Shown: positions 1,128-49,583 of the stretch, piece after piece
Layout of the letters: every line of letters starts with the position of its first letter
Position numbering within the stretch: the stretch's first letter is position 1
The notes under the pieces: model-generated
Seen by the model: only the letters and a program-made list of their open reading frames with translations
Database searches by the model: none
Told to the model about the DNA's origin: nothing
Assembly (NCBI GenBank): GCA_016931415.1
Contig: JAFGEW010000027.1
Span: 4,550-68,549, forward strand
Length of the DNA: 64,000 nucleotides
Direction: 5' to 3'
Source of the DNA: Verrucomicrobiota bacterium
Lineage (GTDB): Bacteria > Auribacterota > JABMQX01 > JAFGEW01
Made by a program: the position numbers and the translations under genes

Positions 1128-4100
1128 TCATGCACCGGCGGGAGGCCTCCTGGACTCGAAATGGGCCTGAATGGCGCGGAGCCGCTCAATAAGCGGGCCG
1201 ATGGAGTCGAGATCGCCGGCCTTGCCAAGCTCCTCGATCCGGGCGCCGATCTCGCTGATCTCGGGGAAGCCGTACGAGGCGCCGCTGCCCTTGAGCCGGT
1301 GGCCGAGCCCGCCGAGTCCGGCCGCGTCGTCCTGCACCGCGAGCGCGTCGAACTCGGCCAGCACGCCGGCAAAGGCGTCCATGTATTCGCCGCGCAATTC
1401 CTCGAGGAGCCCGCTGAACTGCTCATCGGCCTCGACCTGGGTGGCCGGTGCCGACGTCGACGGCGCGAGGCGCGGAGCGGGCTGCGCCGCAGGCGTTGCG
1501 ACCACCTTGCCGACGCCGCCGGCATGCGCCGGCACATGGCGGTGCGCAAGCACACGCCTCATCTCGCCAAAGAGCTCCATCTTCTCGATGGGCTTGGAGG
1601 CGAAACCGTCGCACCCGGCGGCCATAGCTTGATCGCGGTCGACTTCCATTGCCGAGGCCGTCAGCGCCACGATCGGCAGATCGGCCAAGTCCGGATCGGT
1701 CTTGATCGCGCTGGTGGCCTCATGACCGCTCATCACGGGCATGTGCATGTCCATCAGAATGATGTCGGGGCGCCGGCGCGCCTGCTCGACGGCCTGGCGG
1801 CCGTCTTCGGCGATGAGTACGGTGCAGCCGTGGTTCTCCAGCAGCCGGGTGATAAGACGGCGGTTGAACACGTCGTCCTCGGCCACCAACACGCGCAAGC
1901 CCTCACATTGCAGGTCCGGCCGGGTGTGGGACGCGTCCTGCCCGGTCTGCACCTCGCTTTGAACCGGCGCCCACGGGAAGGTCAGCGTGAAGGTCGAGCC
2001 GACGCCCGGCGTGCTCTCGACGCTGATCGTGCCGCCGATCAGCTCGGCGAAACGCCTGCACAATGTCAGGCCAAGCCCGGTGCCGCCGAAACGGCGCGTT
2101 GTGCTCGCATCGGCCTGAGTGAACGGCTGGAAGACCGCGTCGAGCTTGTCGGCGGCGATGCCGATGCCGGTGTCAATCACGGCCAGCTCGATAAGCGCCG
2201 CGCGGCACCGCACGCGAACAGTGATCGAGCCCTGCTCGGTGAACTTCGCGGCGTTCGACAGCAGGTTGGTCAGGATCTGGCGGACTTTGACTTGGTCGGC
2301 GCGGATGGCGTCCGGCACATCGGGAGCGATGTCGGTAACAAGCACGATCCCGTTCTTGGAGCAGCGGGCGCGCACCAGGTCCGTGCTGTTGGCAACAAGC
2401 CCGTGGAGGGAGAAGTCCACCTCCTCGATCGTCATGCGCCCAGCCTCGACTTTGGACAGGTCGAGAATATCGTTGATGAGCGCCAACAGGTTGGTGCCGC
2501 TCGTGTTGATCATGCTGACGGTCTCGCGTTGCTCGGGCGTGAGCGCCTCTTCGAGCAGCAGCGTCGAGAACCCGATAATGGCGTTCATCGGCGTGCGGAT
2601 CTCGTGGCTCATATTGGCCAGGAAACGGCTCTTGGCCTCGTTGGCCGCTTCCGCCGAACGTTTGGCCTGCTCGAGCGCCTCGGCCTGCTTTCGCTCGGTA
2701 ACGTCCTGGAGCACCGTGGCAAACTGGCCGGGCGCCGGAGCGAACACCGAGGCCATGCAGTGCTTGCCCAGCGGCTCGATGTACTGCTCGACAAACACGG
2801 AGCGCTGGGTGGCTATCATCTGGTGGTACAGATCGAGGAACGGGGGCGCTCCCGAGCTGAACAGCTCGGAGCCGCGCTTGCCGAGCACTTGGGCACGCGT
2901 CACGCCGGCGAGCGTCTCGAAGGCCGGGTTGATGTCGAGCACGACGTAGTCGACGGCGCTGCCATCATCACCGCTGACGACCTCGTGCAGGGCGACGCCC
3001 TCGGTCATGGCGGCAAACATGCCGCGGAACCGCTCCTCGCTCCGCCGCAGGGCCTCCTCGGCCCGGAGCCGCTCGGTGATGTCGCGCGAGAGGGCGAGGA
3101 GAATCTCGCGCTCGCCCCATCCAACCTTGGAGACGCGCGTCTCGACGGGGATAAGGGTGCCGTCCTTCGCCATGAGCGGCACGGGGCAGGTCTGGCGCGT
3201 GCCGGCAAGCATATCGGTAATGATGACGGCGCTTTCGGCCCGGCGTTCAGGCGGGTGGACATCGAGCACGTCCATGCCCTGGAGTTCGCGGGCCGAGTAG
3301 CCGAGGCGCTTTTCGACAACCGGGTTGACCTGCACGATGCGCGCGCTCGCATCGAGAATGAACAGGAAGTCCTCCATGCCGTTGAACAGCGTCTGGAGTT
3401 TGTCGTGGCTCTCGCGCACGGCGGTCTCGGCATGCCGGATCTCGTCCGTGCGGCGCTCCACCTCGGCGATCATGGCGTTGATGCTTCGCTGCAACTGCCC
3501 CAGCTCATCGGCCCACGTCTTGGACGAGAGTCGCGCTCCGAGGTCGCCTGCCTCGACGCGCCGCAGGCAGCGCACGGTCTGGCCGATGCGCCAGCCCGTC
3601 AGCGTGTGCACCAGAAACACCCCGGCCAGCGTCGTGAGCACCACACAGACGACCGAGCTCAACGCAAAGGACACGGCGGTCGCCCGCTTCTCGGCCGCCG
3701 AGCGGCTCGTGTTCACCTCGAGGTAAAGGTAGCCGATGAGCTTGTCGCCCGAATGCAGCGGCGTGAGCGTCGAGACGTAGGTCTTGCCGTCGCGCCGGAA
3801 CCACCGCGTCTGGCCTGTCGCGGCGTCGGTCTTCCAGTCCGTTTCGGCTCCGAGCACGGCGCTTGCGTACCGGCCTTCGAGGGCCGGGTCTGAGGCATAG
3901 AACAGCCTGCCGTCGGGCCGCACGACGAAGGCCTGCTCAACGTTCTCGCCAACGAGACGTTCGAGCGCCGCCCGGTCGCGCACCGCGTCGTAGTTGAGCG
4001 CCTGCTCCGCCATGAGCGTGCCTGGGATCTGCATCTTGGTGCGGACCTGGGTGTCGAGTTCGCGGCTGTAGTGGCCGACGTAGTGGAAGCCCAGCAGAAC

Positions 4101-4172
4101 AAAGACCAACGTCTCCATCATGAAGATGGCGAAGCTGATCTTGAATGCAAGGCTATGAACGAACCGCCGCAT
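1128..4172 (-). CDS. Hybrid sensor histidine kinase with domain order TM, HAMP, 2x PAS, HisKA, HATPase_c, REC, Hpt.
   Basis: H-box [18 protein letters not shown]; G-box [13 protein letters not shown]; receiver domain [12 protein letters not shown]...[14 protein letters not shown]...VALTASAM; C-terminal Hpt [12 protein letters not shown]. Start chosen at M22 (MRRFVHS) ahead of the TM segment. Confidence 0.85.
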
Positions 4173-4242
4173 CGCGATCACTCCGACGCCCCCGCACACG
4201 CCGATCCGACCGCCGGCGGCCGGATCGGCCCGCACGGACGGT

Positions 4243-5649
4243 CTACTTGCACTCGGCCATCACCGCGTCGTAGGCCTGCTGGGCTGTCGTTTCGCCAGCG
4301 AGCAAGCGGACGACCTGCTCGTTGACCACATGCCCGAGCAGCTTGTTTTCCTCGCCGAGAATAAAGCCAACGTCATCGCTGAAATACAGCCGGCCCCCAT
4401 AGGTCGTGTTGACCCGAGCCTGAAACTGCTCGAACTGGTCTGTGCCCGCGGTCGAGGTTTCCAGGTTGCCGCGCAGCCCCGTGGGTGCCTTGGTGTAGCG
4501 CACCCACTTCTCGGCCACCTTCGGCTGGCACCAGAACTGAAGCAGCCGCACGGCCGCGTCGCGGTTGGGCGCGTTCTTGAACACGGCAAACTGCGGCGTG
4601 TAGCTGCCCATGTAGAAGTCGGTCGGCGCCAACACGGGCAGTTCGGCCGGCACCATCTTCATCGTCTTGGTCTCGTTGAGGTTCATCCAATGGCTATACA
4701 TCCACGAGCCATTGACATAGAAAAGCGCCTGGCCATCGAGCACCAGCCCGCGCGTGTCGAACCACACGTTGTCGTTGTACGAGCCGATCAGCGGCTGGTA
4801 CCGGCCGATCTCCTCGAGGGCCTGGAGCGTCTTGAGCAACGAGGCCCGCTTGCCCTCCGAAGCGGTCTTCTGCCTCAGCTCGTCGTAGTCGCCCACGGCT
4901 GAGGCGAACAGGTGGCGGAACAGGTACTCGGTCGTGCGCCAGTCTTTGGCCTCGTAGAGTGCGGCGATTGAAGTCCCGTGCGTCGCGTTGTAGTCGTGTA
5001 CGGCGCGCACGTAGCCGACGAGGTCCTCCAACGTCATGCCATGCTGCTTGATCTTCAGGCCGAGATCTCTGGCCACCTCGCTGTTGAACCACAGCATGCA
5101 GTAGAACCCCTCGATGTACGGCCCGACGTAGGTCCCGCCGAAGGCCTCGCGGTACATCGGATCCTCGCTGATGCACGGCTTCTGTGTGGCCAGGAAGCCG
5201 TCGATCTCCCCGAAATCCACCAGGTACTTCTGGCCCCACAACGGGTCGTCAAGCAGCGCGGCCACGTCGCGGTACTGCCCGGTGTTGACCGGCACAATGT
5301 CCCACTCATAGTTGCCGCTCCGAATCATCTCGACGATCTTGGCGGCGACGCACTTCTCGTTGGGCAGTCCGGCTTCCTGATGGAACGCAAAATTGAGGAC
5401 CAAGTCCGGGTTGAGAAAACCGAACTCTTGCGCGAGCTCACGGACGAACGTTTCGCGCTTGTGCTCGCCCATCCACCGGGCCATCCAATTCAGAGACGCC
5501 GTCGTGGGCATCGTCGGACCGCTCGGGCCCGTCCCGTCAAGCACCGGCGTGCCCGCCGGGCCCGTTGTCCGCTGCGACGGCCAGAGCAGGAAGAGCGCCA
5601 GGCCGGCGACCAACACAGTGGTGCCCACGGCAATCCAGGTACGATTCAT
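4243..5649 (-). CDS. Extracellular solute-binding protein (ABC-type family 1, sugar-binding-like) with an N-terminal signal anchor.
   Basis: N-terminal TM/signal [23 protein letters not shown]. About 450 aa with the alpha/beta periplasmic-binding-protein flavour. Encoded between the two hybrid kinases. No cognate ABC permease or ATPase genes are adjacent. Confidence 0.65.
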
Positions 5650-5652
5650 CGT

Positions 5653-7890
5653 CTAACCCTCCTTGGGAGCGGCCACAGGGACCCGCGCCCGGTTGTATGC
5701 GGTATGGATCTCGCGGAGCCGCTCGACCAGCGGCGCGATCGGATCGAGCTTCGCCTGCCTGCCGAGCTGCTCGATCTGGGCGCCCAACTCGCTGATCTCG
5801 GGGAACCCGTACGAGGCGCCGTTGCCCTTGAGCCGGTGGCCAAGTCCGCCGACCGCGGCGGGATCCTGTTGGGCGATGAGCGCGTCGAGCTCGGCGAGCA
5901 CACCGGCAAACGCCGCCATGTACTCGCTACGCAGCTCCGCCATAAGCGAGTCGAAACCCGCCTCCACGGCCGCGCCCGATGCCGCCTGGCTGTCGGACGA
6001 CGCCCGCGGCACGGCCGTCGTGCCGCGCACCCCGAGCACACGCTGCATCTCGGAAAACAACTCGTCGGTCTTGACGGGCTTGGCGACGAAACCGTCGCAG
6101 CCGACGGCAAGCGCCTTCTTGCGGTCGCTTGCCATGGCCGAGGCCGTGAGCGCGATGATGGGGATCGCGGCCGTCCTGTCATCGGTTTTCAGGGCACGCG
6201 TCGCGTCGTGCCCGCTCATGACCGGCATGTGCATGTCCATGAGCACGAGGTCGGGCCGATCGGCAACCAGCGCGACGGCCTCGGCGCCCGTGGCGGCAAA
6301 GGCGGGGATACAGCCATGATTCTCAAGCAGGCGACGTATGAAGCGGCGATTGAACTCATCGTCCTCGGCCACGAGCACGCGTAGCCCGTCGAAGGTCAGC
6401 GACGCCGACGGGGATACCGGCTGCGCGGACAAGCCGGTGCCCGGCCTGAACGGGAACGACATGGTGAACGTCGACCCTTCACCCGGTGTGCTCTCGAGGC
6501 GGATCGTGCCGCCCAACAGCGCCATGTAGCGCCTGCACAGCGTCAGCCCGAGCCCGGTTCCGCCAAACCGGCGCGTTGTCCCCTCGTCGGCCTGCGTGAA
6601 GGGCTGGAAGATGTGTTCGATCTTGTCGGCCTGGATGCCGATGCCGCTGTCCCTGACGTCAACCTTGATGGCGTTGCCCTGCCGCGAGGCGTGCACGAGG
6701 ATCGAGCCGCTCTCGGTGAACTTCACCGCGTTCGACAACAGGTTGTTCAGCGTCTGTCGCACCTTCACCTCGTCGGAGCGAACCGTCGCCGGCAGGCTCT
6801 CTCCGAGTTTGACGCTGAGCGCGATCCCCTTGGCCGAGGCCCGATTGCGGAACAGGCTCACGCAGTTACGCACGAGCGCGCTCAGGTCGAAATCGACTTC
6901 CTCGATGGTCATGCTGCCGGCTTCCACCTTGGACAAGTCGAGGATGTCGTTGAGAAGCACGAGCAGATTGCTGCCGCTCGTGTGGATGATCTCGACCGTC
7001 TCGTGTTGCTCGGGCGTCAGTTCCTCCTCGAGCAGCAAGGTCGAAAAGCCGATGATGGCGTTCATCGGCGTGCGGATCTCATGGCTCATGTTGGCCAGGA
7101 ACTGGCTCTTGGCCTCGGAGGCGGCGCGCGCCTCGCGCGTTTTGGTCTCGAGGTCGCGTGTGCGGTCATGGACCAATTCCTCGAGGTGGGCGCGATGCTG
7201 CTCAAGCTCGGCATCGCGTTTCTGGATCTGCGCCACCATCGAGTTGAATCCCTCGTGGAGCACGCCGAGCTCATCACGGCTCGTGCTCGCCACTCGGATC
7301 GAGTAGTCCCCGTCGATCGAGATGTGCTGCGTGGCCTTGGCAAGCCGCATGATCGGGTCCGCGATGAGGCGCTGGAGCGCTAATCCGAGCAGGACGGAGG
7401 CGCCCAGCGAGCTGCTCACCACGGCGGCCATGATGTACAGCGCCTGCATAATGCGCGCGCGCACCTCGCCCAAGTGGGCGCGCAAGAACACGGTGCCGAC
7501 CTGCTCGCCCTCGAGCACGATTGGGCTGAACACCTCGAGGTGCTTGTTGCGGAACCAGGCGCCACTCTCCCCCACCGGCGGCACGGGGCCCGGCGTGCGC
7601 CCGGCATGGTACGTGGCAAACGGCGCGCCAAGACCGTCATAGACGCACGCATCGACCACAACCGCCTCGTGGCGGAGCGAGGCAAGGGTCTCGTTCGCCG
7701 CACGCGCATCATCGAAGGCAAGTGCCGCCGCCGTGTTGTCGCCGAGCACGCCGGCCAGTGTCGAGAGTGTGCGCACCATCGAGGCGCGCGTCACACGCAC
7801 CTCGTTCACCATAGACGTGGCCCCGGAGAGAAATACCGACACGGCGGCAATCAGCGCCAGGAGCAGCACCAGCTTCGTCTTGATCGACAT
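5653..7890 (-). CDS. Hybrid sensor histidine kinase with domain order periplasmic sensor domain, HAMP, HisKA, HATPase_c, REC, Hpt.
   Basis: H-box [24 protein letters not shown] and Hpt segments are closely paralogous to kinase 1 ([19 protein letters not shown]). Start chosen at M58 ([16 protein letters not shown]). Confidence 0.85.
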
Positions 7891-7909
7891 GGCACTGAAG
7901 CCGCGCACG

Positions 7910-8497
7910 TCAGTCCTCCTTGGTGGCCTTGACAAGGCGCGCCAGCCGCAGCAGCTTCGAGCTGATCTTGAGCCCCGCGCGCTCGGCAGCCGCCGGGTTG
8001 ACTTCGAGCCGCACCTTGTTGTCTTCGATGACCAGACCGAGCGCTCCGCCCGCCTGGGCAAACCCTTTGGTGTCGGCCACGAGCAACACCGGCGTGTCTC
8101 GTAGTCTCTCGATCACGCCGGCGATGCGGCTGTGCTCGGAGACTGCGACAAACAAGATGTGGCACGGCGTGTAGGCCTCGAGGGTCTCGAAACGGCGCAC
8201 GATGATCCGCTTGTCGCCGACCTTCTTGGTCGCTGCAATCTCGTCGAGGAAGGTCCCGAAAGGATCGGAGCCGAGCACGCCGATCACGAACACGTCGGGC
8301 GTCTCGGGTACGGCGGTTGCCGGCCATTCGACGAACAGGGCGGCCTTATACAGAAACGCTGCCTTGATCTGGTACTCGCGGGCCACCAGCTCGGACGCGC
8401 CGGCGCGCCCCGCCATGGCAAACACAGCCGCCAACGCGATCAGGCCGGCGACTGCGGCGGTTGGACACAGCATCAAGGCCGTTCTGCGCAGCATCAC
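7910..8497 (-). CDS. DUF4154 / YfiR-like periplasmic protein.
   Basis: Signal peptide followed by conserved [18 protein letters not shown] ... CHILFV ... LLVADT ... ISSKLLRLA, typical of YfiR-family proteins linked to TonB-dependent receptors and sensor kinases. Confidence 0.7.
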
Positions 8498-8501
8498 CGT
8501 C

Positions 8502-9182
8502 TCAGCTCCCTGCCCAGAGGGCCTGCCGCCAACGGCTCGACGGGCCCCTGGCCGATGCCAGCTTGGTCAGCGCGAGGATCATCCCGCGCCCCCCGGCCTC
8601 GCCCTGGACAAGGCGGGCCAGCCGAAGGAGTTTCGAGCTGATTCTGAGCCCGGCCCGCTCGGCGGCTGCCTGGTTGATCTCGAACCGGACCTTCCTCTCC
8701 TCGAGTACGAGGTTGACCATGCCTCCCGCCTCGGCGAACCCCCCGGTGTCGCCCACGATGAGCACAGCGGCACCGGCAAGCCGCTTGAGCACAACCGGCA
8801 GATGCTCGCGCTCCGACGCGGCGACGAACAGGATGTGGCACGGCGTGTAGCCGTCGAGCGTGGCGAACCGCCGCACGACGATCCGCTTGCCCCGGACGGT
8901 CCTGGACGCGGCGATCGAGTCAAGCTCTGGCCCGAAGGGGTCTTTGCCGAGCACGCCGATGATGAACGTGTCGCCCGCGTCGGGCACGGCGTCCTCGGGC
9001 CAGTCGACGAACGTGGCGAAGTTGTACAGAAAGGCCGCCTTGACCTCGTACTCGCGCGCGGCGCTCTCGCCTTCGCTGGCGAGGACCGGGATCGTGGCGC
9101 ACAGCCACAGCAGCACCACGGCGATGACCGCCGCGGCACTGCGCGTCGGGTCTCGAAGGCCTCTGTCCTTCGTCACGTTCAT
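8502..9182 (-). CDS. DUF4154 / YfiR-like periplasmic protein, a tandem paralog of the preceding gene.
   Basis: Same motif set ([43 protein letters not shown]), giving clear paralogy with 7910..8497. Confidence 0.7.
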   Translation of the reverse strand: MNVTKDRGLRDPTRSAAAVIAVVLLWLCATIPVLASEGESAAREYEVKAAFLYNFATFVDWPEDAVPDAGDTFIIGVLGKDPFGPELDSIAASRTVRGKRIVVRRFATLDGYTPCHILFVAASEREHLPVVLKRLAGAAVLIVGDTGGFAEAGGMVNLVLEERKVRFEINQAAAERAGLRISSKLLRLARLVQGEAGGRGMILALTKLASARGPSSRWRQALWAGS

Positions 9183-9201
9183 GTCAGACGGTCCCCGAGT
9201 G

Positions 9202-11211
9202 TCAGAAGCGGTAAACCAGCTTCAGGCGAAAGCTGCGCCCATCCTGGTCAATGATGTCCTGGATGTGCTCCTCCGACCCTGGATGCCCATAGCGCGTGTC
9301 GAACACGTTGTAGATGCTTGCCGAGAGGCTCAGCCCGTCGGCGAGGTGCGCCGCCACCAGGGTGAGGTTAGCCACGACGAAATCGTCGGCCTCGTTGCCC
9401 CCCAGCGTCAGCCGCGTACCCGTGTAGCGGACTTCGAGGCCGGTGGAAAGCCGTTGGCCGGCGAGAGGCGCCCGTAGCTTGAACTTCGCCAGGTGTCTGG
9501 GCGAGTTGGTCAGCCGCGCGCCGGTTTCACTGTTGGTCGTCTCTTGATAACTGTAACTCGCCGTGGCGCGCGCGCCGGAGCGCCAAGCGCGTTCGAGCTC
9601 GAACTCGACACCATGCGACTCGGCCTGATCGATGTTCATGAAGAAGAGCAGCCCGTCGTCGGGGTCCTCGACCTGGTTGATCAGATCGTCGAGTTCGTAG
9701 CGGAACCCGGCCACCGTGAGCCGCAGCGCCTTGCTGAGCACCTGTTCGAGAACGACCTCGTAGGTCGTGATTGTCTCCGGCCCCAGCTCGGCGTTCCGTC
9801 GTTGGGTGATGGCGTAGTCCTCGTAGTACAGCTCGTAGACGCTCGGGGCACGAAACGCCTCGCCATAGAGAAACTTGAGCGTCGTGCGAGCGCCCGCCGC
9901 ATAGATGAGGGCCAAGCGTGGATTGGTGCTGCCGCCGAAGGTCTCGAAATGGTCGTGGCGCACGCCGGCGTTGACGATGAGCGCGTCGGCGAGCATCCAC
10001 TCGTCCTGCGCATAGACGCCCCAGTTGACGCTGCTCCGCTGGTCGTCAAGATAGACCACTTCATCGAAGTTGAGCTGATCCTGGCGGTAGTTGTTCTGGA
10101 CCTCCGCGCCGACGGTGAGCCGGTGGCGCGCCGAGACCGGCTTGCTGAGCTGAGCCTCGCCGCCGTACCAGCGGCCCCAGACGAAGTCCGTGTTGACCAG
10201 GATGCGCGAAAGATCCCCCGCCTCCGAAGCGTCCCAGGGGTACTCGCCAGCGTAGTTGTACCAGCCGTATGAGAGCCGGGCGAGCGCCTCGAGCTCGCTG
10301 GGATAGGCGTGCATCCATGTCAGGTCGAGGCGGCCCTGCGCGTCAACCGTGAAGGTTCCATGCGCATCGAACAGCGTCTCCCAGGGCGCGGTCGGGATCA
10401 TCTTCTCCCGCCGGGCGTAAGCCGCCTGGAGCGAAAAGTCGCCGTACGAGATCAACCCGAATAACTGGTTGGAGGCATCGTCGTCGTCGGTGGTGCTGCC
10501 GTTGTTGGTCTCAGGCGAGTCGAATTCCTCGAAGAACAACCTCGGGCCCGCGCTGTCGTAGAGCGTGCCCGAGAGCAGCACCTCGAGGCCGTTCTCACGC
10601 CGCGTCGCGTAGGTGAACCGCCCCTTGAGCGTATCGTAGCTGGCCACCTCAGCGCTCGCCTCGGCCCCTTGCAGATCGCGCCCGTGCCTGGTGATAACAT
10701 TGACAACGGCGAACAACGCACCCGTGCCATAGAGCGACGATGAGGGCCCGCGCACGATCTCGACCCGGTCGATCAGATCGACGTCGATAATGGCTGCCGT
10801 GCCGAGGTAGGCTGCGCTGTAGATGTTCTCGTTGATACGGCTGCCGTTGACGAGCAGCAACACACGTGTGTTGTAGTCGCCGGGCCGCAAGAAGCCCCGC
10901 ACGCCCAAGTAGCTGTAGTTGCGATCGTAGGTGACGTAGAAGCCGCGCACCCCGTCGAGCAGCTCGCCCAGCGTCCGGTAGCCGTAGGCGCGGATGTCGC
11001 CGGCCGTCACGATTGTCACCGACGACGGTGCCTGGCGCACCTCCTGCTCGTGGCGCGAGGCGGTCACCACCACGTCAACGTCCATGAGCTCTTCGAGGCT
11101 CAGGTCAGTGAAGTCGGCGCCCTCGGCGTCGCTGTCCGCCGCCTGGGCGGAAGGAGCCGCCGTTGCAGCGATGACGCCGGCGAACAGCACACAGAGGACT
11201 TCGCGTCTCAT
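9202..11211 (-). CDS. TonB-dependent outer-membrane receptor.
   Basis: Signal peptide, then plug domain (DVVVTASR...SVTIVTAGDI...RVEIVRGPSSSLYGTGALFAVVN). The beta-barrel ends in an aromatic residue (LVYRF). Confidence 0.85.
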   Translation of the reverse strand: MRREVLCVLFAGVIAATAAPSAQAADSDAEGADFTDLSLEELMDVDVVVTASRHEQEVRQAPSSVTIVTAGDIRAYGYRTLGELLDGVRGFYVTYDRNYSYLGVRGFLRPGDYNTRVLLLVNGSRINENIYSAAYLGTAAIIDVDLIDRVEIVRGPSSSLYGTGALFAVVNVITRHGRDLQGAEASAEVASYDTLKGRFTYATRRENGLEVLLSGTLYDSAGPRLFFEEFDSPETNNGSTTDDDDASNQLFGLISYGDFSLQAAYARREKMIPTAPWETLFDAHGTFTVDAQGRLDLTWMHAYPSELEALARLSYGWYNYAGEYPWDASEAGDLSRILVNTDFVWGRWYGGEAQLSKPVSARHRLTVGAEVQNNYRQDQLNFDEVVYLDDQRSSVNWGVYAQDEWMLADALIVNAGVRHDHFETFGGSTNPRLALIYAAGARTTLKFLYGEAFRAPSVYELYYEDYAITQRRNAELGPETITTYEVVLEQVLSKALRLTVAGFRYELDDLINQVEDPDDGLLFFMNIDQAESHGVEFELERAWRSGARATASYSYQETTNSETGARLTNSPRHLAKFKLRAPLAGQRLSTGLEVRYTGTRLTLGGNEADDFVVANLTLVAAHLADGLSLSASIYNVFDTRYGHPGSEEHIQDIIDQDGRSFRLKLVYRF

Positions 11212-11698
11212 TGCCGTCTCCTGTCCCTATTCGGTATCTCCAGGTAATCGGGCATTTGTCGCAACCCGCGGCTGGGCCGACGCGCCGGTCAACTCCCCAC
11301 GGATGCGGTGAAGACGCACGGCAGGCATAGGGACAAGCCCGGCGGGGATATGCTCTGTGCAGCCCAGCGCGCTCGGGGGTGTTCCCGAGCTGGGCCGGTA
11401 ACAGTCGGCAGCGTGCGGAGTCCTCACTGTTGTTGCGGCAGCACGATCCGCTGCGACCATGTGTGTCTCTCTCCCTGCGGCGCGCCCCCGGGGCGGGCCG
11501 GCAGCTCTCTCTGGTGCGCGGGTGGGCGCGCCCCCCGGGGGAGAGGGCGCGCGCAGTCCGGTCGTGGTATCGGCACACTGGGGAGTCGCTTGAGCTGAAA
11601 CCCGACCCTCCGAGTCGGTTCCGAGTGCCGAACGGAAGGGTTGCCCGGATCGGACCTGACCTGTATCATCCGCGGGCACTGTCTTGGGAGGAAAGCGA

Positions 11699-12772
11699 AT
11701 GCCGTCTCAATCGGACCACGGCGAGACCGCCGCCGGCCACCTGCAGCCTCAGGAACCACTCTCCCAGATCCCCGTCCTCCACATCCGTGCCCGCACGCTG
11801 CCCGAGGCGTGGGAACGCGCCGTCGCCGAGACCTGGCGAACGGGCGCCGCCATATGCACCCAGTACGACAAGCCCGGCGACCCGCCTAGCCGTGACGCCA
11901 CCGTCGTGATCGAGATCGCCGAGCCGCTCGGCGAGCCGCGCCTGCACCGTAGCTTCCCCGCCGGGCTCGAGGAGCTGGAGATCTACGTGCAGGAGGTCGT
12001 CTGGGGCGTGCACGACTCGTGGATTCGTCCGGACCAAGGCAAGTGGTCCTACACCTACCACCAGCGCCTGTTCGCCTACGACGTGATCGCCGATTTCCGG
12101 GACTCGCCCACGGGCGGCCCGTTCGGCGCCGTTGACCAAGTAGCTGCCGTGGTCGACGAGCTCGCCGCGTGCGGCTACACGCGCCGTGCCCAAGCGATTA
12201 CCTGGATGCCGACCGTTGACCTCGGCCACGCCGAGCCGCCGTGCCTCCAGCGCGTCTGGTGCCGGCTGATCGATGCTGCCCCCGCGCACCGCACTGACGA
12301 GGCCCCGCGCCTGGTGATGAACACACACTGGCGCTCGCGGGACGGCTACAAAGCGGCCTTCATGAACATGGTAGCGCTCACCACGCTCCAGGCCGAGATC
12401 GCCCGCCGGCTCGCCGAGCGCCTTGGCCGGCCCGTCGAACTCGGCCGCTACGTCGACATCTCCGACAGCTTCCACATCTACGGGAGCTACTTCGGCGAGA
12501 TCGAACGCAGCTTCCTCGCCCTCATGGCGCAGCGCTCGTTCGACGAGCGCACCTGGCGCACCGACGATGTGGCCGACCTGCTCCTCATGGGGCGCGTGCA
12601 GCTTCTCAACGGCAAACCTGGTGAACCGCCCGTCTCCGACAACGACGCGGCGCGTCTGTACTCAAGCCTTCCCCCATCGCACCGATGCTTAGTGGAGGAA
12701 TCGGTGCGCACCCGCATCGAGCGCGCACAGGCCGGCCCCCGCGCCGCAGGCGCAGGCGACGCCGGACTGTGA
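11699..12772 (+). CDS. Thymidylate synthase / dCMP-hydroxymethylase superfamily enzyme; divergent, with a 60-aa N-terminal extension.
   Basis: Active-site Cys (PPCLQRVWCRL) aligns with ThyA PPCHAFFQFYV. WRSRD aligns with QRSCD, FMNMVAL with FNIASYAL and DISDSFHIYGSY with GDTHLYSNH. ATG at 11699 sits 7 nt after GGGAGG. Confidence 0.65.
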   Translation: MPSQSDHGETAAGHLQPQEPLSQIPVLHIRARTLPEAWERAVAETWRTGAAICTQYDKPGDPPSRDATVVIEIAEPLGEPRLHRSFPAGLEELEIYVQEVVWGVHDSWIRPDQGKWSYTYHQRLFAYDVIADFRDSPTGGPFGAVDQVAAVVDELAACGYTRRAQAITWMPTVDLGHAEPPCLQRVWCRLIDAAPAHRTDEAPRLVMNTHWRSRDGYKAAFMNMVALTTLQAEIARRLAERLGRPVELGRYVDISDSFHIYGSYFGEIERSFLALMAQRSFDERTWRTDDVADLLLMGRVQLLNGKPGEPPVSDNDAARLYSSLPPSHRCLVEESVRTRIERAQAGPRAAGAGDAGL

Positions 12773-12866
12773 CCGGAGTGCTCTGCGACAGCTAGACGGA
12801 TTGGACAACACGAGACACCAGCACCATGCCGGCTCAGACGAAGCGTCGGCGAGCCCGAGCGTATCC

Positions 12867-14039
12867 ATGGCAACACGAGCCCAGGTTCTCATCATCGACG
12901 CCGACGTGACCACGCTGGAGGCGCTCCGCGTCGGCTTGGCGAAAAACGGCTTCACCGTCGAGGCCCATGCCGACGCCCATGAGGCCTACCGGGCGCTGGC
13001 GGCCCGGCCGTTCGACGTCGTCATCGCCAGCCTCGGCGTGCCCCAGGCCGAGGGCCGCAAACTGCTCGAACGCGTCAAGCAGGGCGACCCGACCGTGCCG
13101 GTCATTTTCCTGGCCAACGGCTCGGCCTGCTCGTCCGCGGTCGAGGCGCTGCGACAAGGCGCCTTCGATATCGTCGAGGGGCCCATCCGCGTACCCAAGG
13201 TCCGATCGCTTGTCGAGCGCGCCATCGAGGTGCGCCGCTTGCGCGAGGAAGTGGCCCGCCTGCGTGCAGAAATGCTCGCCGGCACCTGCCCCGACGAGCT
13301 CATCGGCCAAAGCCCCCCCCTCGTCGCCGTCCTCGAGGCGATCCGGCGTGCAGCGGCCGACACAGGCTGCGTGTTGCTCTGCGGCGCGCCGGGCACCGGC
13401 AAAGAGCTGGCGGCCCGCACCATTCACCGGCTCAGCACCCGGGCAAGCAAACCGTTTGTTGCCGTCGACTGCGCCGCCCTCAACGAGGCCTTCGTCGAGA
13501 GCGAGCTTTTCGGCCACGTGCGAGGCGCCTTCCCCGGCGCCTTCGCCGACCACGCCAGCCTGATCGAGACCGCGGATGGCGGCACGTTGTTCCTCAACTC
13601 GATCGACGTGCTGTCGAAAGCGGCCCAAGTACGCCTGCTCAAGGTCATCGACGAGCGCGTGATCCGTCCGCTCGGCTCGACCGCGTCGCGCCCCGTCGAG
13701 GCCCGGCTCGTGGCCGGCACCGCAACCGATCCTGCAACCGCCGCCGGCCGCCGCCGAGTCCGGGAGGATCTTCTTGCCCGCCTGAGCACGGTGCGCATCG
13801 CCCTTCCCGAGCTCAAGGAGCGGTCCGAGGACATCCCGCTACTCGCCAATTTCTTCGCCAAGACCATGGGCGCACGCCTCGGCACCCCGCCGCCTGCAAT
13901 CTCGCCCAAGGCGATGGCAATCCTCATGGATCGGCCCTGGCCAGGCAACGTCCGACAACTGCGCGACGTGGTTGAGCGCGCCGCCCTTCTGACCGACAGC
14001 GCTCAGATCTGCCCAGAACACCTCGGCGAGCCAACCTAG
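12867..14039 (+). CDS. Sigma-54-dependent response regulator (REC + AAA+ sigma-54 interaction domain). It ends at TAG before any DNA-binding domain.
   Basis: REC domain (VLIIDADV...DVVIASLGVP); Walker A GAPGTGKE; ESELFGHVRGAFPGA; GNVRQLRDVVERA. See the finding on the in-frame extension 14040..14279. Confidence 0.8.
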   Translation: MATRAQVLIIDADVTTLEALRVGLAKNGFTVEAHADAHEAYRALAARPFDVVIASLGVPQAEGRKLLERVKQGDPTVPVIFLANGSACSSAVEALRQGAFDIVEGPIRVPKVRSLVERAIEVRRLREEVARLRAEMLAGTCPDELIGQSPPLVAVLEAIRRAAADTGCVLLCGAPGTGKELAARTIHRLSTRASKPFVAVDCAALNEAFVESELFGHVRGAFPGAFADHASLIETADGGTLFLNSIDVLSKAAQVRLLKVIDERVIRPLGSTASRPVEARLVAGTATDPATAAGRRRVREDLLARLSTVRIALPELKERSEDIPLLANFFAKTMGARLGTPPPAISPKAMAILMDRPWPGNVRQLRDVVERAALLTDSAQICPEHLGEPT

Positions 14040-15669: not shown

Positions 15670-16227
15670 TCACTCGGCCGTGATGGCGGTCGGCGAGGTC
15701 CACACCGTCCCAATCCAGGCCGGCGTGCCCCCGCCGGGGAGCGGCTCGTCCTTGACCGTGTAGAAGAACACCACGCGGTACTCCCCTGGCTGGGAGAAGC
15801 TGTAATACGGCGCGATACGCACCACCTCGTTCGCGCTGGTGAAGTCGCCGAGTTGAGGCGCATACAGCTCGCCCTGGACGTCCTTCGGCGCAAGCGCGAC
15901 CGAGGTGATCTGACCATCGGGGGCCTTGATGGCCGCGCTGAGAAATGTGTACACGATGCCGTCGGGCGTCTCGATGCCGAGCGGCAGCGCGCGCGGCGTT
16001 TTCGATGCATTGTACAGGAGCACATTGAACTCCACGTCGCCGCCGGTTTGGATGGTCGTCCAGGCCGGGCGGGCCTGGAGCTTCACCGAGCGGTCCTTGG
16101 GCGGGCGGAACTCCTCGCCGAAAAACTGCTCAAGGTCGGTTCTCTCGTCCAGCGGCTTGTCCTTGCGCCCGCAACCGCACAAGACGGCCACCACGGCAAT
16201 CACACAGATCATCGTTCGCCAGATCAT
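15670..16227 (-). CDS. Hypothetical lipoprotein.
   Basis: Lipobox-like N-terminus (VIAVVAVLCGCG). Start overlaps the archaemetzincin stop by 4 nt, which suggests translational coupling. Confidence 0.5.
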   Translation of the reverse strand: MIWRTMICVIAVVAVLCGCGRKDKPLDERTDLEQFFGEEFRPPKDRSVKLQARPAWTTIQTGGDVEFNVLLYNASKTPRALPLGIETPDGIVYTFLSAAIKAPDGQITSVALAPKDVQGELYAPQLGDFTSANEVVRIAPYYSFSQPGEYRVVFFYTVKDEPLPGGGTPAWIGTVWTSPTAITAE

Positions 16228-17195
16228 GGTTCCTCCACACCTCTTGTTGTGGCTGCACGCACGCCCGGAGCGCCGGCAAGACGCTCGCGCACGAGGCGCG
16301 CATCCAATGTGAATCCAAGTTGGTCGTATAGAGCCGCCAGCCGTTCGAACCGCACCGTCGGATCAAAGGCAAGCGCATGACGCAGTTTATCATGACACAG
16401 CGGGCAGTAGTGTAACGGCTGGCCGTCGCTTTCACCGAGCGAATTGCTCCCGTTCATACAGCAGGCGTAGAAGATGCAGTGCCGCAGACCGAAGACGTGG
16501 CCGGTCTCGTGCGCGAAACTCTTGACCGCCCGGTGCAGGAACTCGGGCGTGTCCGGCTCCCCGTTGCGCCCCAGCGCAATGATCGCGACCCGCCTGCGCA
16601 AGCTGGCCAGACCGAATACGAAGTCGAGCTCGCCGCTGTAAAGGTCGGCCATGGTCACCCCAACCACGGCGAGCGCATCGTCGGGCGCGACGCGCGCCAG
16701 CCGGGTGAGCACGTCGGCCGCATTGTACTGCTTGCGCCGGTGGATGTAGGACGCCTCGGGCAGTCGAACGGGCCGGAGCACGGTGACGCGGCAATCGAAG
16801 AACACCCGCGCAAACGCGGCGAGCTGTGTCACCACCCGCTGCGTCGCCGCGTCCATCGGCCCGCACGGCAGAATGTAAATCGTCTGGCGCTGATCGGACT
16901 TGAGGTTGCCCGCCGTCCGGACGAACTCCTCGTACGTCTGCCCGGGCTCGACCACAATCGAACGCCACTCGCCCGGCTTCGGCTCGCCGAGCTTACGCCA
17001 TTCGCTCTGAGCATACTCGGCATAGACAAGCGCTGTGCGCTGCTCGGCCGTCAGCGGCGCGCTCGGACGCGCCGCCTGCCCGGCCGCACGCAGGAAGCCC
17101 CACCCGATCGCGATGCACGCGATCAGTCCCACCAGCCTGAGCAACAAGCCCGGCCGGACGGCTCGGTGGAACGTCGTGAGACGCTCAGACATGGA
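16224..17195 (-). CDS. amzA: Archaemetzincin-like zinc metallopeptidase.
   Basis: HETGHVFGLRHCIFYACCMNGSNSLGESDGQPLHYCPLCHDKL matches the archaemetzincin HExxHxxGxxHCxxxxCxM...CxxC signature. N-terminal TM anchor present. Confidence 0.7.
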   Translation of the reverse strand, partial: SMSERLTTFHRAVRPGLLLRLVGLIACIAIGWGFLRAAGQAARPSAPLTAEQRTALVYAEYAQSEWRKLGEPKPGEWRSIVVEPGQTYEEFVRTAGNLKSDQRQTIYILPCGPMDAATQRVVTQLAAFARVFFDCRVTVLRPVRLPEASYIHRRKQYNAADVLTRLARVAPDDALAVVGVTMADLYSGELDFVFGLASLRRRVAIIALGRNGEPDTPEFLHRAVKSFAHETGHVFGLRHCIFYACCMNGSNSLGESDGQPLHYCPLCHDKLRHALAFDPTVRFERLAALYDQLGFTLDARLVRERLAGAPGVRAATTRGVEEP

Positions 17196-17337
17196 CATTG
17201 TCCTTGACTGCGTCTGGGGCACCAAATAGGTTGGGGCCGCGTTGCCATCTCTGAACGGATGATGCTATCATATATATATGATGCGTGTCCCGCCAACGCA
17301 AGTTGGGGGTGCGCATCGTGCTGCAAAGGAGATCGCC

Positions 17338-40091: not shown

Positions 40092-40799
40092 CTATTCGAA
40101 CGGATCGACGGTGTAGCTCTCCGCCGTCTCCACGTCTTCCCTGACGATGAGATACTGGACGTGCCCGTCGAGATACAGCACGTTGAACGACGGGAAGCCC
40201 GCCGCCGTGTGCCAGTACCGTTGCAGCTTCGGCCAGTTCGGATTGAGCGTGACAAACCACCCTGCGTCGCCCGCGACACAGAGCCGGTCCGACGACGTCG
40301 AGATCTCGCCCAGATGCACGCCGCACAGCCGATCGTCGTTGTAGATGTACGACGTGCCAAACCGCGTGTAGACCGGCACGCCCGGCCGATCGGCGAACCC
40401 GTCGTCGCTTGGGCACAGAAATACCTCGTAGCGCGACGTCTCGGTGCCCGGCTGAACGTACGGATTGAGAATACGGTGCGACGCCGGGTACGCCCCGCCC
40501 CAGGGAGCGTCCTCGCCCGTCGCCCCGCCGAACGTGCTGCCGAGCACCATGTTGTTCTCGTCGCTCGGGAAACCGTCCCAGTCGGCCAGATACGCCGACC
40601 ATCCGATGCCGATCTGCCGCAAATTCGACAGGCACGACGCCCGCTTGGCCGCCTCGCGCGCCCGCCCGAGCGCCGGCAGCAGAAACCCCGCGAGAATCGC
40701 AATGATGGCGATCACCACGAGCAGCTCGATCAGCGTGAACCCGCGCCCCCGCCGGCCCGGGTGCTGAGAACGATCCGCTGAGCGCATTGGACCTCCCAC
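40092..40799 (-). CDS. Prepilin-type N-terminal cleavage/methylation domain protein with DUF1559 (Planctomycete pseudopilin).
   Basis: [25 protein letters not shown] and C-terminal H-x-DG region (YLDGHVQY). Confidence 0.75.
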
Positions 40800-46056: not shown

Positions 46057-47127
46057 TCACCCACCCGGTAGCTCCCCCTCGGAACCGCCGGGCTGGCGGG
46101 TGCCGGGCTCGATATCGGTCAGCGCGATGCCGTGGCGGTAGACGCGGACCTCGCCGGTGGACTCGCTGACCACAATGGCGATGGAGTTGCTGACGGCGGC
46201 GGTGATGGACGCGGCGGCGAGATGCCGCGCGCCAAGTCCCGGCGGCAGCTCGGCCGGCGTGATCCGCGCGTCGAGATAGGTGCCGGCGGAAAGGACGATG
46301 CCCTTGGTGTCGATGACAAAGGCACCATCGATGGTCGAGAACTCCTTGATCGTGGCGCGCACGGAGGGATCGAGTATCTGGCGTTGGCGCTCGCTATAGC
46401 CCTTGAACGGATTGAGGACGAGCTGGCGCACGTGGTCCTTGAGCGCCTTGGTGTCGCCGATGACGAAGATGGTGCCGACTGGCTTGCCTTCGCGCCCCTG
46501 GTTGGCCAGCTCGAGAGCCAACTCGAGGACCGTGTCGAAGACGCCGGCCTTGACGCGCCTGGCAAATCCCCCGATGTCCGACGTGGTGATCACCTCGGTC
46601 TCAGTGCCTACCTGCAGAACCAGGATCGTGTCGAGCACGCCCGCCTCCGGCAGCCCGGAAACGCAGACGACCCGGTCGCCCGTCTTGAGCAGCCCGCGCG
46701 AAGCCGCCATGACCATCGCGACCTTGATCTTGCCCACGCGCCCCATGGGAATGCTGGGAACCTTGAGCACCTTGCACGCGGCGGCATCGGGGAGTACCAT
46801 CTGGTCAGTCGACTGCGTGACGACGTAGATGTCGAAGCGGCGTTTCGACGCATCCAGGACGCGCCCGGACGGGAGCAGATCGGCCGAGATGAACACCGCA
46901 AGGGCCTGGAAACGGTCCGCGATCTCGAGCGCGTGGTCAATGACCATGTTGGACAGGGAACTGCCGTCGGGCGACAGCGGGCCGGACACCGTCTTCAAAC
47001 CCGTCTTGCTTACGGCCTTCCCGCCTGCTCGTACAGGCAGCGCGGCTGTACGCCGGCGTGGCCGCCCCGTCTCCTTGGCGCCCGGCTTGTCGCGTGGCGC
47101 GCCCGCATCTCTGCTCGATATGGCCAT
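46057..47127 (-). CDS. CdaZ-type diadenylate cyclase: pyruvate-kinase C-terminal-like domain + DAC domain (c-di-AMP synthase).
   Basis: DAC motifs GTIFVIGDT, DGAFVIDTKGIV, GARHLAAASIT, AIVVSESTGEVRV. N-terminal domain resembles PK_C (GDRVVCVSGLPEAGVLDTILV). ATG 9 nt after GGAGG. Confidence 0.65.
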   Translation of the reverse strand: MAISSRDAGAPRDKPGAKETGRPRRRTAALPVRAGGKAVSKTGLKTVSGPLSPDGSSLSNMVIDHALEIADRFQALAVFISADLLPSGRVLDASKRRFDIYVVTQSTDQMVLPDAAACKVLKVPSIPMGRVGKIKVAMVMAASRGLLKTGDRVVCVSGLPEAGVLDTILVLQVGTETEVITTSDIGGFARRVKAGVFDTVLELALELANQGREGKPVGTIFVIGDTKALKDHVRQLVLNPFKGYSERQRQILDPSVRATIKEFSTIDGAFVIDTKGIVLSAGTYLDARITPAELPPGLGARHLAAASITAAVSNSIAIVVSESTGEVRVYRHGIALTDIEPGTRQPGGSEGELPGG

Positions 47128-47567
47128 GACGGCTTGAGCTCCTCCTTCCTCACTATACCACAATGGGGCCATCTGTCGCCTTCCCGCGAGTTCGCCCGCC
47201 AGGCCATCAGACACGGGTGTCTCTTTGTCCTTGACAATCATCTACTAACTGAACAAAAAGCATACCAACCCAGTGCCACTGGGCACGCGGTGCAGCGCGT
47301 GACGGGCTTGCTCGCCAAAGACGGGTGCGACACCATGGCCCATACTTGAGCTGCGGTTGTGTGTCACCTTGTCCCGATTCCACTCGGCCAGAGCCAGGCA
47401 CACGATCGGCCGATGTCGGTAACAAGCGTCCGCGCAGGCTGTTAAGATGATACTATTCCGCTGGCACCGCACTTGCGTTCTGTCTGGCAGAGATGAGGTT
47501 TGCCCATTCGTGATCGGCTGAACAGCCTAGGGATAGCAGGAAGAAACTGACAAGGAGGGACGAAGGT

Positions 47568-47879: not shown

Positions 47880-49583
<1,704 letters not shown>

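Follow-up and report, generated by a model that had tools for sequence, protein, structure and literature searches.

The gene at 11699–12772 (+ strand) of the 64,000-nucleotide stretch analysed here (positions 4,550 to 68,549 of contig JAFGEW010000027.1; hereafter the window, meaning the whole stretch) encodes a protein of the thymidylate synthase (TS) superfamily. It is probably the organism's housekeeping TS, from an uncharacterized, mostly bacterial sister clade of archaeal-type ThyA, and is predicted to act on deoxyuridine monophosphate (dUMP) through Cys182. This reading is based on the equivalents of Asn177 and Asp169 of E. coli ThyA, inteins at the catalytic site, linkage to NrdR and near absence from phages. 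It also draws on at least 590 cellular loci, 76 invariant alignment columns, lineage-coherent synteny and the loss, in relatives, of an adjacent sigma54 regulator. The open reading frame (ORF) is complete, with 357 aa plus a stop codon in the ORF list and family matches at 88–50% identity. Its product is exactly identical to GenBank MBN1916812.1, a 'hypothetical protein' from a metagenome-assembled genome (MAG) labelled Verrucomicrobia bacterium.

A first-pass annotation, made from the letters alone, had assigned the protein to the TS superfamily, and both the structural matches (Foldseek probability 1.0) and the conserved catalytic residues bear this out. Its suggestion that the gene could be the organism's ThyA holds in part: a TS function is favoured, but the enzyme is not a canonical ThyA and falls in a sister clade of the archaeal type.

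Relationship to archaeal-type thymidylate synthases

The low similarity to ThyA reported at first pass was borne out by curated models. The protein scores 21.3 bits on PF00303 (Pfam), under the gathering score of 24.3, and its best sequence match in the PDB has E=0.12. None of the canonical ThyA models of NCBIfam (TIGR03284, NF0024xx) matched it at E≤0.01, and family relatives reach 18–46 bits on such models against cutoffs of 108–427. The best curated match is TIGR03283, the NCBIfam model of methanogen-type TS, at E=3e-32 and 111.7 bits (cutoff 174.55), spanning model positions 2–197 of 201; ten diverse family members score 112–133 bits on the same model. We take the TIGR03283 type to be that of the M. 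jannaschii MJ0757 enzyme. A profile of 35 family sequences reached solved ThyA structures at E=3.6e-4, over the catalytic core only, and its search of the PDB found no solved structure for the clade.

Profile comparisons place the family closest to the archaeal enzymes. Our references comprised E. coli ThyA, T4 gp42, SPO1 gp29, five more gp29-like phage enzymes, a methanogen-virus 'methanogen-type TS' and eight proteins above the TIGR03283 cutoff (186–245 bits). With hhalign, the family aligned to methanogen-type TS at 99.6% probability (E=9e-25) over 195 columns, the whole of the archaeal enzyme, and to the gp29-like hydroxymethylases at 97.8% (E=1e-12) over 126 columns of the core. The methanogen-type and gp29-like groups aligned to each other at 99.8% (E=3e-28, 200 columns). 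Against E. coli ThyA as a single sequence, the family gave 3.9% (E 0.011) over 154 columns.

We built a neighbour-joining tree from 49 sequences over 238 columns, with 200 bootstraps; it recovered the family as monophyletic in 99% of replicates and the phage hydroxymethylases in 96%. The family joined methanogen-type TS in 74.5% and the phage hydroxymethylases in 0% (0/200). Neither of the placements envisaged by the first-pass annotation, among canonical housekeeping ThyA or among the hydroxymethylases, thus applies to the gene; instead the family is a separate, mostly bacterial clade, sister to archaeal/methanogen-type TS.

The AlphaFold model has a TS fold, with a mean predicted local distance difference test (pLDDT) score of 87.7 and a predicted template modelling (pTM) score of 0.86. 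Foldseek matched it to ThyA structures with probability 1.0, E of about 1e-10 and template modelling (TM) scores of 0.45–0.65. The top match is MilA (probability 1.0, E=3e-12), with a marginal lead over ThyA and similar TM-scores. The flavin-dependent deoxycytidine monophosphate (dCMP) hydroxylase AfhB gave target-normalised TM-scores of 0.70–0.74.

Active-site residues and the predicted reaction

All four motifs quoted at first pass are present and correspond residue for residue to active-site positions of E. coli ThyA: PPCLQRVWC (residues 180–188), WRSRD (211–215), FMNMV (221–225) and DSFHIYGSY (256–264). By hhalign, C182 is the equivalent of the nucleophile C146, R162/R163 of R126/R127, and R212, S213 and D215 of R166, S167 and D169. 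Y120 matches Y94 and N223 matches N177, and the D205/H207/Y209 positions lie within DSFHIYGSY (H259=H207, Y261=Y209). The protein departs from E. coli ThyA in having E179 at L143 and H105 at W80.

These identities extend across the family. In a census of 280 family proteins, the catalytic Cys is kept in 275/276, the Asn177-equivalent is Asn in 268/271 and the Asp169-equivalent is Asp in 268/270. The Arg166 and Ser167 equivalents are kept in 270/270 and Tyr94 in 276/277. Among 35 aligned sequences, 76 columns are invariant, with 50–60% identity between phyla, and this conservation is extreme for the taxonomic breadth of the family.

Experimentally supported rules in E. coli numbering assign Asn177 to dUMP and Asp177 to dCMP; Asp169 is kept in folate-type enzymes, and flavin-dependent 5-hydroxy-dCMP synthases have Asn169 (PMC13326640). 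Under these rules, N223 and D215 point to a uracil rather than a cytosine nucleotide, and to pterin-type rather than flavin-hydroxylase chemistry. An AfhB-like flavin-dependent hydroxylase, raised by the TM-scores, was ruled out by the same two positions.

A second link to canonical enzymes lies in the loop 'VVWGVHDSW' (residues 100–108), which aligns with the cofactor-contact loop I79-W80-D81-E82-W83 of E. coli ThyA. Among the 280 family proteins, its first marked position is His in 197, Lys in 38 and Arg in 14, its Asp is kept in 251 and its Trp in 219. The match of the family GVHDxW loop to W80-D81-E82-W83 may point to a more canonical mode of pterin binding. Its lower pLDDT (61–69) suggests that the loop may be mobile.

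In the mechanism that we propose by homology to ThyA, dUMP would be held by R212, S213, N223 (uracil O4/N3) and H259/Y261 (3'-OH), and also by R162/R163, probably donated across a dimer interface. The Cys182 thiolate would add to C6 of dUMP. The resulting enolate would then attack the methylene on a one-carbon carrier of the reduced-pterin type, which D215 and the H105-D106-x-W108 loop would hold in place. Y120 may help to remove the C5 proton, and reduction of the exocyclic methylene would yield deoxythymidine monophosphate (dTMP). In this scheme the dTMP product, the one-carbon donor and the reductant are predictions. A dTMP product is implied for the archaeal type by the alternation of ThyA and ThyX among archaeal lineages (PMC9012536).

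Distribution of the family

The family is widespread in cellular genomes. More than 5,000 matches came from a search of 5.8 billion clustered proteins, at 58–88% identity in the close clade and about 55% for many others; Phycisphaerae, Omnitrophota and Thermoplasmata are among the named sources. When 1.84 billion representatives were searched exhaustively with a profile, 315 clusters (50% identity) matched at E<1e-30, and species-representative genomes contain at least 590 loci encoding a relative. The best 80 of these loci come from Aminicenantes, Planctomycetota, Omnitrophota, Elusimicrobia, Poribacteria, Armatimonadota, a Paceibacterota MAG and Thermoplasmata; their Planctomycetota comprise Phycisphaerae, Sedimentisphaerales, Kuenenia and Pirellulales-labelled MAGs. 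JGI and some NCBI records call family members 'thymidylate synthase'. The inconsistent naming arises because no curated equivalog covers the clade, and our literature search turned up no paper on the bacterial clade.

Several family members from metagenomes (P0137, P0140, P0146, P0157, P0191, P0230) carry inteins with Hint/Intein_splicing domains and a LAGLIDADG endonuclease. One insertion site, at profile position ~169, adjoins the catalytic Cys, and the other, at ~105, lies close to the YTYH motif. Inteins concentrate at conserved sites of essential replication and nucleotide-metabolism proteins. A separate observation concerns P0142 (451 aa), in which an N-terminal RNase H-like domain (RVT_3/RNase_H) is fused to a full-length family TS.

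Relatives are nearly absent from viruses, with three weak matches among 50,697 phage genomes and four loci among 2.9 million viral contigs. The phage contig L094 (IMGVR_UViG_3300021431_000553, with terminase and portal genes) encodes a distant 250-aa relative at 30% identity, in the region 1503–3642 (+). It keeps the Cys, Asp169 and Asn177 equivalents and has lost the GVHDxW loop, which suggests a viral side branch that was recruited to modify DNA.

Genomic context across the family

Neighbouring genes are coherent within lineages, the pattern of a vertically inherited housekeeping gene. KsgA, PdxA and riboflavin synthase (RibE) recur at Planctomycetota loci, and a YhhN-family protein recurs in Aminicenantes. 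NrdR, the repressor of ribonucleotide-reductase genes and the one functional linkage, to deoxynucleoside triphosphate metabolism, lies downstream on the same strand at 10 Planctomycetota loci, and a second ATP-cone protein at 8. The NrdR-linked loci span Kuenenia, Sedimentisphaerales and Pirellulales-labelled MAGs. A guanylate kinase gene adjoins the TS gene in a 60%-identical relative.

At 24 Planctomycetota loci (within L016–L084; for example L017:4544–5956, +), a co-oriented gene 1–77 bp upstream encodes a protein of ~470–510 aa. It has a signal-peptide-like N-terminus and no Pfam match, and does not occur in this window. In Planctomycetota it is probably co-transcribed with the TS gene.

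Evidence against a textbook thymidylate synthase

Several observations weigh against a housekeeping TS of textbook type. The protein falls below both curated cutoffs, PF00303 and TIGR03283. At the Leu143 position none of the 280 family proteins has a hydrophobic residue (Asp 176, Glu 50, His 26, others 19), and the Trp80-equivalent is His, Lys or Arg. Enzymes with Leu143 tend to form methyl products, and those with Asp/Glu at this position hydroxymethyl products (PMC13326640). Our references agree, with Leu in E. coli ThyA and Asp in both T4 gp42 and SPO1 gp29. The nearest biochemically established enzymes to the archaeal-type supergroup are the phage gp29-like dUMP hydroxymethylases, and archaeal TS itself is experimentally uncharacterized, with its cofactor open (PMC9931769; PMC9012536). 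Finally, the gene of the relative on phage contig L094 runs into the 3' end of one for a GT8 glycosyltransferase, and the pair suggests a uracil-based DNA hypermodification module.

The Leu143 rule loses its force within this branch. Eight of eight genuine methanogen-type TS have Asp, Glu or His at the position, so the acidic residue does not allow a product call within the archaeal-type/gp29 supergroup, and the product call by this rule was dropped. The acidic residue is a trait of that supergroup as a whole and a real difference from canonical ThyA.

We see a small chance that the clade, and possibly the whole archaeal-type branch, dispenses with textbook folate-dependent reductive methylation, either releasing 5-hydroxymethyl-dUMP or making dTMP with another donor or reductant. 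Such chemistry is kept in view because of the polar or acidic residue at Leu143, the loss of Trp80, the unrelated C-terminal domain and the gp29-like kin.

Alternative functions

One alternative is a true dTMP synthase with non-canonical chemistry, using another one-carbon donor or a separate reductant, producing no dihydrofolate and requiring no dihydrofolate reductase. It is a mechanistic sub-variant of the housekeeping reading, and we regard it as improbable without being far-fetched. Within 6 Å of dUMP C5 in E. coli ThyA, five residues are replaced family-wide: W80 by His/Lys/Arg, L143 by Asp/Glu, H147 by Leu, Q165 by Trp/Phe/Met and C168 by Arg/Asn. In addition, an unrelated helical domain stands in place of the canonical C-terminal segment, and the cofactor of the archaeal type is unsettled in the literature (PMC9012536; PMC9931769). 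No folA occurs near any of 90 family loci, which is weakly informative. Against this alternative stands the conserved pterin-contacting Asp169, the loss of which marks the flavin-dependent hydroxylases. The H-D-x-W loop, absent from methanogen-type TS, matches the canonical cofactor loop, and no partner reductase recurs among the neighbours.

The main rival, though less likely again, is a dUMP hydroxymethylase, or another C5-modifying enzyme with a product other than dTMP, in an organism where a separate thyX or thyA supplies dTMP. Cys182 and the one-carbon donor would work as they do in TS, but water activated or admitted by E179 would add to the exocyclic methylene intermediate to give 5-hydroxymethyl-dUMP. 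The enzyme shares its triad with SPO1 gp29 (Asn177, Asp169 and an acid at 143), and position 143 correlates with hydroxymethyl versus methyl products (PMC13326640). The gp29-like enzymes are detectably related, with the motif DS[L/F/Y]H[IV]Y common to both groups, and the phage relative lies beside the GT8 gene. However, genuine methanogen-type TS have the same acidic residue, so that the rule does not discriminate here, and the archaeal alternation of ThyA with ThyX implies a dTMP product (PMC9012536). No bootstrap grouped the family with the phage enzymes. The family occurs very widely in cells and hardly at all in phages, and unlike the phage enzymes it never lies beside a deoxynucleoside monophosphate (dNMP) kinase or transferases; the phage relative itself is without the family GVHDxW loop. 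We know of no cellular pathway that uses 5-hydroxymethyl-dUMP, which also counts against this function.

A specialized MilA-like paralog, serving a nucleoside-antibiotic or other secondary pathway under the sigma54 regulator, is largely refuted and highly improbable: MilA is the top Foldseek match and the regulator lies 94 bp downstream without a terminator in an order kept in two close relatives, but the MilA lead over ThyA is marginal, MilA-type enzymes have Asp177 where this protein has Asn, the window holds no biosynthetic genes, the upstream region has no sigma54 promoter, and neither L010 (79% identity, with the flanking genes otherwise unchanged) nor any more distant locus has the regulator.

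The first-pass alternative, in which a hydroxymethylase or methylase paralog serves DNA hypermodification or antibiotic synthesis, is not sustained. It was ruled out by the diagnostic residues (Asn177 in 268/271, Asp169 in 268/270), the phylogeny (0/200 grouping), the distribution with its near absence from phages, and a context without flanking biosynthetic or modification genes.

Gene structure and domain architecture

The ORF is intact on the + strand and ends at 12772, with two candidate starts, TTG 11684 and ATG 11699. ATG 11699 is preferred for two reasons: the sequence itself shows a Shine-Dalgarno motif, GGGAGG (11686–11691, +), 7 nt before it, and a sigma70-like site precedes it. That site, TTGCCC-17 nt-TATCAT (11641–11669, +), has 9/12 matches in a consensus scan and is a consensus match only; the scan of the region gave two sites against 0.3 expected. 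No sigma54 -24/-12 element was found in the 487-bp divergent intergenic region (11212–11698). The TS gene thus appears to have its own predicted sigma70-like promoter and a strong ribosome-binding site without a sigma54 promoter, in support of the housekeeping reading.

The protein begins with a non-conserved tail of ~22 residues (11699–11764, +), predicted to be disordered (pLDDT 46–50). Conservation in the family alignment starts at residue 23 ('IPVL'), AlphaFold is confident from about residue 21 and TIGR03283 aligns from residue 28. The 60-aa N-terminal extension described at first pass thus shrinks to these ~22 residues. The TS-fold catalytic core occupies residues 23–264 (11765–12490, +), as delimited by the TIGR03283 match (residues 28–264), hhalign and the invariant columns.

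Three features of the protein had been overlooked: two internal insertions and a ~90-aa C-terminal helical extension. The insertions, seen as hhalign gaps against methanogen-type TS, are the 'VVWGVHDSW' loop at residues 100–108 (11996–12022, +) and a loop at residues 128–143. The C-terminal extension spans residues 265–345 (12491–12733, +), with helices modelled at 262–345 and a pLDDT of 84–98. Both the TIGR03283 and the methanogen-type alignments stop before it, at residue ~264–266; it lacks a counterpart in methanogen-type TS, and no similarity to the C-terminus of canonical ThyA could be detected. The final ~45 aa ('LLNGKPGEPP...LP..H..LV..VR') occur only in P0001–P0042, the closest clade to the query.

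The surrounding locus

The neighbours are as the first-pass annotation described them, with a sigma54 regulator downstream and a divergent TonB-dependent receptor, and its remark that nucleotide-metabolism context is missing is confirmed: the 64-kb window contains no nucleotide-metabolism or biosynthetic gene, and no modification gene flanks the TS gene. A ThyX motif pattern matched the window only by chance and out of frame. A tblastn search with E. coli FolA, phage L5 ThyX and E. coli ThyA found none in the window and the 90 loci (1.03 Mb), a weakly informative result.

The sigma54-dependent response regulator (REC, AAA+ and lid domains by Pfam and gene call) lies at 12867–14039 (+), with an alternative TTG start at 12801. 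It begins 94 bp after the TS gene, with no terminator between. By Pfam it ends at the lid domain and has no C-terminal helix-turn-helix (HTH) DNA-binding domain. Enhancer-binding proteins without a DNA-binding domain are known, as in Chlamydia CtcC and Helicobacter/Campylobacter FlgR. Here, such a regulator occurs in a MAG labelled as a member of the Planctomycetes–Verrucomicrobia–Chlamydiae (PVC) group.

The description of a regulatory locus holds for this contig, where the regulator is adjacent, but the synteny is shallow. The regulator adjoins the TS gene only in the two nearest relatives (L008 and L009, 77–82% identity). In L010, at 79% identity, the other flanking and downstream genes are kept and the regulator is missing, as it is from all more distant loci. 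Functional coupling to the regulator or the TonB cluster was ruled out by this loss of adjacency at 79% identity and by the missing sigma54 promoter, and the proximity of the regulator and of the TonB-receptor/sensor-kinase genes appears to be incidental local synteny.

On the other side, the TonB-dependent receptor gene (9202–11211, -) is divergent from the TS gene. It belongs to a signalling cluster (1128–11211, -) that also encodes two YfiR/DUF4154 proteins, a solute-binding protein and two hybrid histidine kinases with Hpt, one of the CHASE8-HAMP type and the other with PAS. The proteins of this cluster are plausible phosphorelay partners of the sigma54 regulator across the TS gene.

Further features of the window stand apart from the TS gene. 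Its sole perfect sigma54 consensus (TGGCAC-N5-TTGC) is TGGCACCGCACTTGC at 47462–47476 (+), ~415 bp upstream of and co-oriented with GroEL (47892–49583), with rpoZ next after the chaperonin gene. The site may be a groEL promoter dependent on sigma54, or it may match by chance. Two genes have a mainly archaeal flavour, an archaemetzincin-type Peptidase_M54 and a diadenylate cyclase with a DacZ_P sensor (16224–17225, -, and 46057–47241, -). A DUF1559/N-terminal-methylation (prepilin-like) protein is encoded at 40092–40799 (-). Such proteins are characteristic of Planctomycetota and other PVC bacteria, in keeping with the MAG label.

Significance

Cells cannot do without thymidylate synthesis, a classic drug target, and only two of the enzyme classes that carry it out, ThyA and ThyX, are well understood. 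The sister clade described here is likely the sole TS candidate in many uncultured bacterial lineages. Its recognition closes an annotation gap, with members that have neither a curated model nor a solved structure and are often named 'hypothetical protein'.

One reason why the archaeal-type branch has stayed unresolved biochemically is that the one-carbon carriers of archaea are unusual and difficult to obtain (PMC9931769). The bacterial clade may offer a more tractable system for the cofactor and chemistry of the branch, since its hosts presumably use ordinary folates. Should the enzyme prove to be simply a folate-dependent TS, it would be an ordinary housekeeping protein and a useful re-annotation. 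Should it use another donor or reductant, it would add a third mechanism for making thymidylate, at work in bacteria that use folates, Planctomycetota and Aminicenantes among them.

Comparison with related enzymes

The TS superfamily includes enzymes with distinct substrates and products, and the family shares features with each of them. The flavin-dependent AfhB (phage HY126) and RB69 gp48 (PDB 9iqu, 9iqc) have the TS fold in compact form. Their signature is Asn169 with Asp177, and the present protein is the opposite at both positions, with D215 and N223. The dCMP/CMP hydroxymethylases T4 gp42 and MilA share the TS fold and an acid at the Leu143 position, but have Asp177 (cytosine) in place of the Asn (N223) found here; T4 gp42 scores 1.1 bits on the family profile.

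Canonical ThyA shares the fold and a one-to-one set of residues, C146, R126/R127, R166, S167, D169, N177, Y94, H207 and Y209, and the overall reaction is presumably the same. Despite this, sequence similarity is marginal and confined to the catalytic core, the C-terminal domain differs, and the N-terminal R21 segment of canonical ThyA has no clear equivalent in the query.

The phage dUMP hydroxymethylases (SPO1 gp29, PhiW-14 gp230 and the ViI-like Det7 gp108; phrog_5131) resemble the query in Asn177, Asp169 and an acid three residues before the Cys, as well as in a 'DS[L]H[V]Y'-like motif and long C-terminal extensions. The query scores 38.5 bits on phrog_5131, in contrast to 455.7 for gp29 itself. 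The phage genes adjoin dNMP kinases, whereas the query family is cellular with housekeeping neighbours. SPO1 gp29 (L090:14101–15252; related L095–L099) scores 84.7 bits on the methanogen-type profile, compared with 46.3 for E. coli ThyA. The phage gp29-like enzymes and archaeal-type TS may form one supergroup with an acid at the Leu143 position, as these sequence comparisons suggest.

Methanogen-type TS is the closest of the known systems. It shares with the query the P-C-L motif with the catalytic Cys, W-R-S-x-D...N, the R-R pair, Y-T-Y and H-I-Y, an Asp or Glu at the Leu143 position, and homology across the entire ~200-aa archaeal enzyme. Identity is ~28%, and the query adds the 'GVHDxW' loop, the 128–143 loop and the ~90-aa C-terminal helical domain. 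The archaeal enzymes end shortly after H-I-Y, whereas the query is predicted to continue for ~90 confidently folded residues. Unlike the archaeal methanogen-type enzymes, the query family is mainly bacterial.

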